From Methanococcus maripaludis (lineage in GTDB: Archaea; AGJL01; Methanococci; Methanococcales; Methanococcaceae), in NCBI RefSeq assembly GCF_002945325.1, contig NZ_CP026606.1, positions 960,001 through 992,000 of the forward strand: a stretch of 32,000 nucleotides of DNA. The letters run 5' to 3'. The notes under the pieces were generated by a model. It did no database searches and was not told the origin of the DNA. It saw nothing but the letters and a program-made list of their open reading frames with translations. Below, piece by piece: positions 15,137 through 15,660 of the stretch. How positions within the stretch are numbered: the stretch's first letter is position 1; each line of letters opens with the position of its first letter. A program made the position numbers and the translations under genes.

Positions 15137-15250
15137 AAGCCATATCCCTCCAGTATGAAAATAGTCCGAAAAGTGTCTTAAAATATATAATGAATTATCT
15201 TTTTTATAAGTTTCGAAAAACCGAAAGTTTAAAACATCTAAAATAATAAT

Positions 15251-15292
15251 ATTGTGAATATAAGTTTAAAAATAAAATAAATTGTGAATATA
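15251..15292 (+). repeat. 42-bp unit A containing two ATTGTGAATATA 12-mers 30 bp apart
   Basis: The unit reads attgtgaatataaGtttaaaaataaaataaattgtgaatata. The 12-mers are at 15251-15262 and 15281-15292. Confidence 0.9.
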
Positions 15293-15436
15293 TTATTTTT
15301 TTGTGTATCTAATTAATATAAATCCTTATTTTTAATTAAAAATCATTTTAATAAAATCAGTATATTATATAAATATATCACAATAAATATAAAATTAATT
15401 TGAATTATGAAAAATAAGGTATTTTTGTAAATATTA

Positions 15437-15478
15437 ATTGTGAATATAACTTTAAAAATAAAATAAATTGTGAATATA
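15437..15478 (+). repeat. 42-bp unit B, 41/42 identical to unit A
   Basis: The unit reads attgtgaatataaCtttaaaaataaaataaattgtgaatata. The 12-mers are at 15437-15448 and 15467-15478. Confidence 0.9.
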
Positions 15479-15648
15479 ACAAGTAATATATATTAAAACA
15501 GATTATTATTAATAAAATTACAAATTAAATATAAAAAATCAAGATACTTAAAAAAAAGAGTTTAAATCATGATTAAACTGGTAAAATATAGTAATAAGAT
15601 TAATTTTTTAAATAATATAATATATGAACTGAAATAAGATTATAAAAT

Positions 15649-15660
15649 ATTGTGAATATA
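15649..15660 (+). repeat. Fifth perfect ATTGTGAATATA 12-mer, same orientation
   Basis: Exact match. An imperfect inverted copy (tatatcacaat, one base short) lies at 15374-15384. Confidence 0.85.

Follow-up and report, generated by a model that had tools for sequence, protein, structure and literature searches.

In the 32,000-bp stretch of the Methanococcus maripaludis chromosome analysed here (hereafter the window; contig NZ_CP026606.1, positions 960,001 to 992,000), five copies of a 12-mer box, ATTGTGAATATA, lie in one orientation within the intergenic gap that separates the gene of the AAA+ ATPase Mc-pRIP from that of a 173-aa winged helix-turn-helix (wHTH) protein. Non-random and under purifying selection, the boxes share one orientation, keep a precise spacing and, within the ~430 kb examined, are restricted to this locus. 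From sequence comparison, we predict with a probability of roughly 55% that one of three winged-helix proteins of the locus recognises them as phased binding sites, and that they serve both origin function and the control of local promoters. The five boxes are as follows.

15251..15262, + strand: box 1, exact match to ATTGTGAATATA, first of the proximal pair; RTGAAT at the orthologous position in 15 taxa.
15281..15292, + strand: box 2, 30 bp from box 1; GTGAAT in 14/15 taxa.
15437..15448, + strand: box 3, 156 bp from box 2, a spacing (±1) found in 12/15 taxa.
15467..15478, + strand: box 4, 30 bp from box 3; most of the other genera have ATGAAT here.
15649..15660, + strand: box 5, 182 bp from box 4 and 95 nt from the wHTH ATG, with a TATA-like box just downstream.

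All five exact copies start on the + strand where the original prediction had put them (15251, 15281, 15437, 15467 and 15649), between the Orc1/Cdc6-like gene and the wHTH/zinc-finger gene, and the 32-kb window contains no sixth. The gap has a G+C content of 14%, and the boxes sit 115-524 nt upstream of Mc-pRIP. By chance, 0.03 copies of ATTGTGAATATA are expected, and five were reached in 0 of 100 dinucleotide-preserving shuffles, in agreement with the earlier claim that the recurrence is not fortuitous. The first four boxes are contained in two 42-bp units (15251-15292 and 15437-15478), which, as described before, are identical at 41/42 positions and carry two boxes each with 30 bp between box starts. 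The extended 5' flank aaaataa(a)ataa can be read directly in the sequence at boxes 1, 2 and 4. Two additional strings had been connected with the array, both of which exist but neither of which holds as an extra box. The inverted, one-base-short copy at 15374-15384 (tatatcacaat; reverse complement ATTGTGA-TATA) belongs to a differently conserved block (TATATAAACTATCAC...) at 15324-15407, and it aligns with ACTATCAC in other taxa, so that it is not clearly a box. The string aatattgtggaaaa is located at 16793-16806, one base off the coordinates given for it, and was rejected since the alignment of the next gap revealed no conservation of this copy in relatives.

The array was compared across the order Methanococcales. 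The loci compared were those of M. maripaludis C5, Methanococcus sp. CF, M. vannielii, M. voltae and M. aeolicus, together with three Methanothermococcus, Methanotorris igneus, M. jannaschii, two further Methanocaldococcus and three related metagenome-assembled genomes; motif frequencies were counted in 23 Methanococcales loci, about 400-430 kb. Alignment of the orthologous gaps, a check proposed along with the original prediction, placed the five boxes at homologous columns in 15/15 taxa, from M. maripaludis to M. jannaschii. The common core is RTGAAT(A/C)WA, and the aligned sites, 75 in total from the 5 boxes of 15 taxa, read (G/A)-T-G-A-A-T-(A/C)-(A/T)-A-A, with at least 73 of the 75 carrying each of the core bases T, G, A, A and T. 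All copies of the array share one orientation across the 15 genomes, and in 13/15 taxa the core matches within the gap are confined to the array strand. The start-to-start spacing of 30, 156, 30 and 182 bp is kept to within ±2 in 12/15 taxa, and still reads 30, 156, 31 and 184 in M. jannaschii. The first base of the core depends on the box, with GTGAAT mostly at boxes 2 and 3, and ATGAAT mostly at box 4 outside the M. maripaludis clade. Sequences around the boxes diverge between taxa, whereas the boxes themselves are unchanged.

The degenerate core occurs on the array strand 64 times in 9.9 kb of orthologous gaps versus 58 times in 556 kb of strand elsewhere, an enrichment of ~62-fold, and the exact M. 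maripaludis 12-mer, wherever it occurs in the 23 loci, falls in the orthologous gap in the same orientation. By these alignments the array is ancient, a five-site pattern common to the order Methanococcales. We give next to no credence to the idea that it is a functionless chance repeat or recent local duplication in AT-rich DNA. The near-identity of the two 42-bp units is indeed what a recent duplication would leave; however, besides the shuffles described above, the positions, orientation and spacing are kept between genera in which Mc-pRIP is only 68-70% identical, and the comparative data refute this reading. Separately, M. aeolicus carries an insertion of ~240 bp between the Mc-pRIP start and the remaining gap (roughly 9760-9990 of its locus, estimated from the alignment), which contains three tandem copies of TATTGAATAT, a box-like string without GT.

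The perfect 12-mers and the 41/42-identical units are specific to the M. maripaludis lineage. In each genome of this clade, units 1 and 2 agree at 42-45 of 48 positions; the figure for other genera is 23-36 of 48, and the pairs there are alike only at the boxes. Strain-specific spacer variants are common to both units of one genome, for example TTGGAAAAA in strain C5. This high within-clade match and the shared variants point to concerted evolution of two ancient box pairs, and the unit identity thus looks like the outcome of homogenisation (gene conversion).

The gap has already been published as an origin candidate, on the level of in-silico prediction. Zhang and Zhang reportedly predicted in 2004 an oriC beside the gene of this family in M. 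jannaschii. The MJ0774 family was named Mc-pRIP, and DoriC and Ori-Finder place the single oriC that they predict for Methanococcales in the intergenic region next to its gene (PMC3531139; PMC4009838; 10.64898/2026.08.15.744077), with such an oriC given explicitly for M. maripaludis S2, C5, C6, C7 and X1 (PMC3531139; PMC4009838 section 3.4). As an AT-rich intergenic region with repeats directly beside an MJ0774-family gene, the gap described here is the same locus as the published Mc-pRIP-adjacent oriC (DoriC 5.0, PMC3531139; Gao 2014, PMC4009838; Ori-Finder-Arch, 10.64898/2026.08.15.744077). Other authors consider Orc1/Cdc6 to be lost or unrecognisable in Methanococcales and call initiation "an intriguing unknown" (PMC3914693, PMC3984812, PMC5333045); Methanococcales and Methanopyrales are the archaeal orders without a recognised canonical Orc1/Cdc6 (PMC3984812, PMC5333045). 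Four genes of the locus are relevant to the question of what binds the boxes.

13910..15136, - strand: Mc-pRIP, an AAA+ ATPase of 408 aa that ends in an ArsR-type winged helix; putative divergent Orc1/Cdc6-like initiator.
15747..16268, + strand: 173-aa protein with an N-terminal ArsR-type wHTH and an invariant C-terminal WCxxCQx4CxH; candidate box binder.
16898..17989, - strand: 363-aa protein found only in Methanococcales, with a C-terminal wHTH and no family match; its model best matches DNA-bound archaeal Orc1/Cdc6.
17996..20086, - strand: MCM helicase gene, which adjoins the cluster in Methanococcus, Methanothermococcus and Methanotorris.

Mc-pRIP is 99% identical to an M. maripaludis protein and 68-84% identical across every Methanococcales genus sampled. 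The label "Orc1/Cdc6-like" given to it by the original prediction stands for the predicted fold and fails at the level of family scores. In a Foldseek search with its AlphaFold2 model, the leading matches are Orc1 of yeast and fly, Cdc6, and Orc1/Cdc6 of archaea (E-values of 1e-10 to 1e-9), in agreement with the structural claim of the Ori-Finder-Arch preprint (10.64898/2026.08.15.744077), but the score for TIGR02928 is 23.9 bits against a cut-off of 181.3, and no Pfam Cdc6 winged-helix match was found in the protein. The 173-aa protein keeps its C-terminal W-C-x2-C-Q-x4-C-x-H cluster in all orthologues aligned, and the pattern looks like a zinc finger; no match of this Cys/His cluster to SWIM or another zinc-finger family of Pfam was obtained.

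The model of the 363-aa protein has a predicted local distance difference test score (pLDDT) of 80.6. Its top match is Aeropyrum pernix ORC1 on DNA (PDB 2v1u, E-value of 1.2e-4 over 351 aligned columns), followed by Sulfolobus solfataricus Orc1-1/Orc1-3 on origin DNA (PDB 2qby), and then by RuvB and eukaryotic ORC subunits; the global TM-scores are low (about 0.18). The C-terminal part matches ArsR-type winged helices, and inspection of the protein alignment by eye revealed no Walker A motif. From the Orc1-like model matches and the apparent lack of Walker A, this protein looks like a second, degenerate Orc1/Cdc6-like paralogue next to MCM. A sequence search of solved structures gave nothing useful for either Mc-pRIP or the 363-aa protein.

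We propose that each box would be bound by one of Mc-pRIP, the 363-aa Orc-like protein and the 173-aa wHTH protein. The distance of about three helical turns within the pairs, together with the fixed long gaps, would bring the bound proteins into one phased nucleoprotein structure beside the origin. By our estimate, the binder has somewhat less than an even chance of being an Orc-like protein, about one chance in three of being the wHTH protein, and one in five of being something else. Co-variation cannot discriminate the binder because the recognition regions are conserved in both Orc-like proteins as well as in the wHTH protein.

Box 5 stands apart from the other four in its setting, which involves the following element.

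15665..15674, + strand: TATA-like box TATTATAAAA (TTTATAA in relatives) of the predicted wHTH promoter, from the gap alignment at columns about 855-890.

In the gap alignment, the TTTATAA-type sequence begins ~5 nt past box 5 and is followed ~22 nt further by a conserved AATTGA. Together they are arranged like an archaeal TATA box with its start site, from which we infer that box 5 lies at the edge of the predicted wHTH promoter proximal to the transcription factor B recognition element (BRE). With box 5 at this BRE/TATA position, occupancy of the array would be coupled to transcription of the wHTH gene. The distance from box 5 to the wHTH ATG is 87-101 nt across taxa (95-101 in 14/15, 87 in M. 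voltae), and that from box 1 to the Mc-pRIP ATG is 117-358 nt.

Several points weigh against a role of the array at an origin. Its register is kept with the wHTH gene and not with Mc-pRIP, so that a purely transcriptional role fits equally well. The boxes have no canonical core of the origin recognition box (ORB) and are never inverted, and thus they are linked to the initiator by position only. The AlphaFold2 model of Mc-pRIP is of low confidence (pLDDT 59), and the frequency of RTGAATMWA was counted over about 430 kb only. In Methanocaldococcus indicus, Mc-pRIP has no large adjacent gap. Z-curve analysis of strain S2 was inconclusive (PMC3984812), and we found in the literature no experimental origin mapping, binding, transcription or replication study of this locus in Methanococcales.

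The main rival explanation is a pure operator array, which we regard as rather doubtful. It supposes that the 173-aa protein autoregulates via box 5 and controls the Mc-pRIP promoter via the upstream boxes, with no direct origin role. The protein is of the ArsR/SmtB type, whose members typically autoregulate, and box 5 with its constrained distance to the ATG abuts the TATA-like box directly upstream. Operators of the ArsR family are, however, short inverted repeats overlapping the promoter, whereas the boxes are direct repeats, and four of the five are found 180-400 bp upstream, at long-range distances that are strictly conserved. A quasi-dyad, TATT-GTG-AATA, is limited to the M. maripaludis clade, and the rest of the locus is devoted to replication, with MCM, two Orc-like genes and a gap that resembles a DNA unwinding element (DUE). 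Either reading of the original prediction, ORB-like sites or an operator for the wHTH protein, may apply, and the operator one gains support from box 5.

Between boxes 2 and 3 lies a further conserved feature.

15324..15407, no strand assigned: central block …AAACTTTAATAAAA…TATATAAACTAT…AATAAAGTTT…TTTAATT, invariant columns in an 11-taxon alignment.

The invariant TATATA of this block reads TTTATATA on the strand toward Mc-pRIP and is flanked by AAACTTTAAT and ATAAAGTTT; the block may serve as a distal promoter or as one more binding site. It also invites the explanation that the boxes and the block are promoter or small-RNA elements, driving unannotated transcripts such as an origin-proximal non-coding RNA or a distal Mc-pRIP transcript. 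The TATATA reading toward Mc-pRIP and the TATA-like box beside box 5 speak for this, yet we consider it quite improbable: the TATA and start-site layout occurs at box 5 only and not at boxes 1-4, TATA-like strings are frequent at 10% G+C, and an Rfam search of both gaps, this one and the next, detected no RNA family.

The unwinding step itself would probably take place outside the array, at a distance of ~1 kb, in the next gap, which spans 16269-16897 between the convergent wHTH and 363-aa genes. Here a second element, TATAYA-N5-TCGAAAnnnCGAAA, conserved across the order, forms an inverted pair that flanks the least stable DNA. The elements concerned are listed below.

16338..16368, - strand: left arm of the inverted repeat, TATAYA-N5-TCGAAAnnnCGAAA, from the next-gap alignment.
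16668..16700, + strand: right arm of the inverted repeat, CATATATACATCATACTCGAAACACCGAAAAAC, from the next-gap alignment.
16430..16640, no strand assigned: candidate DUE, from a stability scan.
15200..15227, + strand: second-element copy TTTTTTATAAG-TTTCGAAAAACCGAAAG, ~20-30 bp upstream of the Mc-pRIP TATA-like box (15180-15191, minus strand).

Although placed between convergent genes, the next gap (629 bp here) is kept at 457-756 bp in every genome sampled, and the arms are separated by 346-362 bp in those taxa, 12 of 15, for which both arms were detected. The least stable 60-mer of the whole window, 16534-16593 with 3% G+C, falls between the arms. Besides the copy next to the Mc-pRIP TATA-like box, several taxa carry another one at the far end of the gap. 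By analogy with characterised archaeal origins, it is the second-element pair, and not the five boxes, that has the ORB(-)/DUE/ORB(+) geometry, and the next gap looks more like such a classical origin core than the five-box gap does.

Copies at the Mc-pRIP TATA box and in the interval between 5S rRNA and RNase P RNA had raised the suspicion that TCGAAAnnnCGAAA is a generic promoter or BRE element. This was largely rejected, since the distance to the RNase P start is unfit for a promoter and the other placed matches are coding; elsewhere, wherever the position was worked out, matches to TCGAAAnnnCGAAA fall in coding sequence for conserved peptides such as FENSKI and SKYRK. The extra non-coding copy (TTTTTCGAGTTTTCGGGTAGCATATAC) is located at 28533-28564, between the 3' end of the 5S rRNA and the start of the RNase P RNA.

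Combining both elements, we tentatively consider a two-code origin, in which the second-element pair surrounds the unwinding region while the five-box array is read by a second protein, either the 363-aa or the wHTH/zinc-finger protein; it is possible, yet clearly less probable than the general prediction of phased binding sites. If it were true, the boxes would be an essential non-ORB platform for licensing or loading, without a counterpart in characterised archaeal origins. Altogether, three winged-helix proteins and two families of cis-elements are found within one 4-kb locus.

Among known systems, the closest reference is the ORB and mini-ORB of Sulfolobus, Pyrococcus and Methanothermobacter, which share with the boxes the organization as short repeats clustered by an initiator gene in an AT-rich gap, and of which the mini-ORBs, at ~13 bp, are close to the boxes in size (PMC1904270). 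The location of the boxes, clustered beside the orc1/cdc6-like gene Mc-pRIP, agrees with this family, but the sequence does not: ORBs have a conserved TTCC … GAA core (PMC1904270), and the boxes contain no TTCC, only GAA being common to both. Nor are the boxes arranged as inverted copies around an AT-rich unwinding element; they are direct repeats, never inverted pairs, and ORBs have not been described with a fixed long-range spacing such as theirs (156 and 182 bp). A scan with TTCCAGTGGAAA, which we take to be the canonical mini-ORB consensus and of which only the TTCC and GAA cores are backed by PMC1904270, gave 50 matches at up to 3 mismatches versus 44 expected, with none in either gap. 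Of the suggestion that the boxes are ORB-like sites, the general idea of functional protein-binding sites at an Orc1/Cdc6-linked locus is strongly supported by the conserved position, orientation and spacing and by the published oriC prediction, whereas the core sequence and the inverted arrangement of the ORB family are lacking.

Iterons are contiguous tandem arrays of 17-22-bp units. Like the boxes, those of plasmid replicons are direct repeats in one orientation by an initiator gene, set at whole helical turns, with one site placed to regulate a promoter; the boxes differ in forming two pairs and a single over 410 bp of chromosome rather than a contiguous array. The ucm motif and its binding protein UBP at Sulfolobus origins offer a precedent for a conserved origin motif outside the ORB family whose binding protein is no initiator and yet is required for the origin to function (PMC12141716). 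However, the ucm sequence, TTATACAAAC (as cited in 10.64898/2026.08.15.744077), is different, and UBP binds hundreds of genomic sites (PMC12141716), whereas in the sequence sampled the boxes appear to be limited to a single locus. On oriC2 of S. solfataricus, Orc1-1 and Orc1-3 (PDB 2qby) provide two paralogues for two elements at one origin, which parallels the two Orc-like genes and two element families described here. In contrast to Orc1-1/Orc1-3, the 363-aa paralogue appears to be without Walker A.

Direct-repeat arrays bound by wHTH proteins are also typical of partition sites, and the footprint of archaeal histone multimers grows in 30-bp steps. The boxes might accordingly be a centromere-like or chromatin-phasing array that recruits a winged-helix segregation protein or positions histone multimers, a reading to which we assign a low probability, just above that of the small-RNA elements. 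It draws on the resemblance of the wHTH in the 363-aa model to TubR and the pNOB8 centromere-binding protein, and on the spacings of 30, 156 and 182 bp, which are near multiples of 30. However, these fold matches are generic winged-helix ones, the locus encodes no ParA/SegA-type ATPase (the sole CbiA/MinD-family match being a 482-aa CobQ-like amidotransferase), and conservation of the TGAAT core argues for a sequence-specific binder rather than nucleosome phasing.

The order of the 363-aa gene, gap, wHTH gene, gap and Mc-pRIP is kept in all sampled genomes except M. indicus. In the latter, no 363-aa gene, no wHTH gene and no boxes were found within 10 kb of Mc-pRIP, so that the initiator gene and the array are separable. 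The M. indicus Mc-pRIP gene (locus around 10001-11215) is tightly flanked by a NiFe-hydrogenase subunit gene and CdhD-like genes. In the window, the G+C content over 15000-17500 is 19-26%, coding parts included, versus ~32% in the flanks. A mobile-element origin had been suspected from the ~20% G+C over this interval and from MCM and AAA+ scores far below the NCBIfam cut-offs; it was rejected because four genera keep the gene order and Mc-pRIP, a core gene, evolves slowly. Given this ancient synteny, the low G+C does not stem from a mobile element. Further along, the window carries an rRNA operon and the RNase P RNA at 23690-28819. A neighbouring gene of the T2SSE-family ATPase contains an intein in Methanothermococcus (17128-20082 of its locus) and Methanotorris (16672-19071 of its locus) and none in Methanococcus, and the Methanothermococcus copy additionally has a LAGLIDADG domain.

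In the papers searched, we found neither the sequence of the boxes nor their five-site spacing across the order, and no mention of the second element with its DUE or of an Orc-like fold in the 363-aa protein; the five-box architecture, the second element with the DUE and the 363-aa fold may be partly known already. M. maripaludis is a genetically tractable, polyploid model methanogen. The present analysis turns an origin prediction into a list of parts that can be mutated: five spaced boxes, a second-element pair around the least stable DNA, and three candidate binders. The question of how and where Methanococcales start replication thereby becomes directly testable in a tractable organism, and the same list bears on whether origin-dependent initiation operates at all in M. 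maripaludis.

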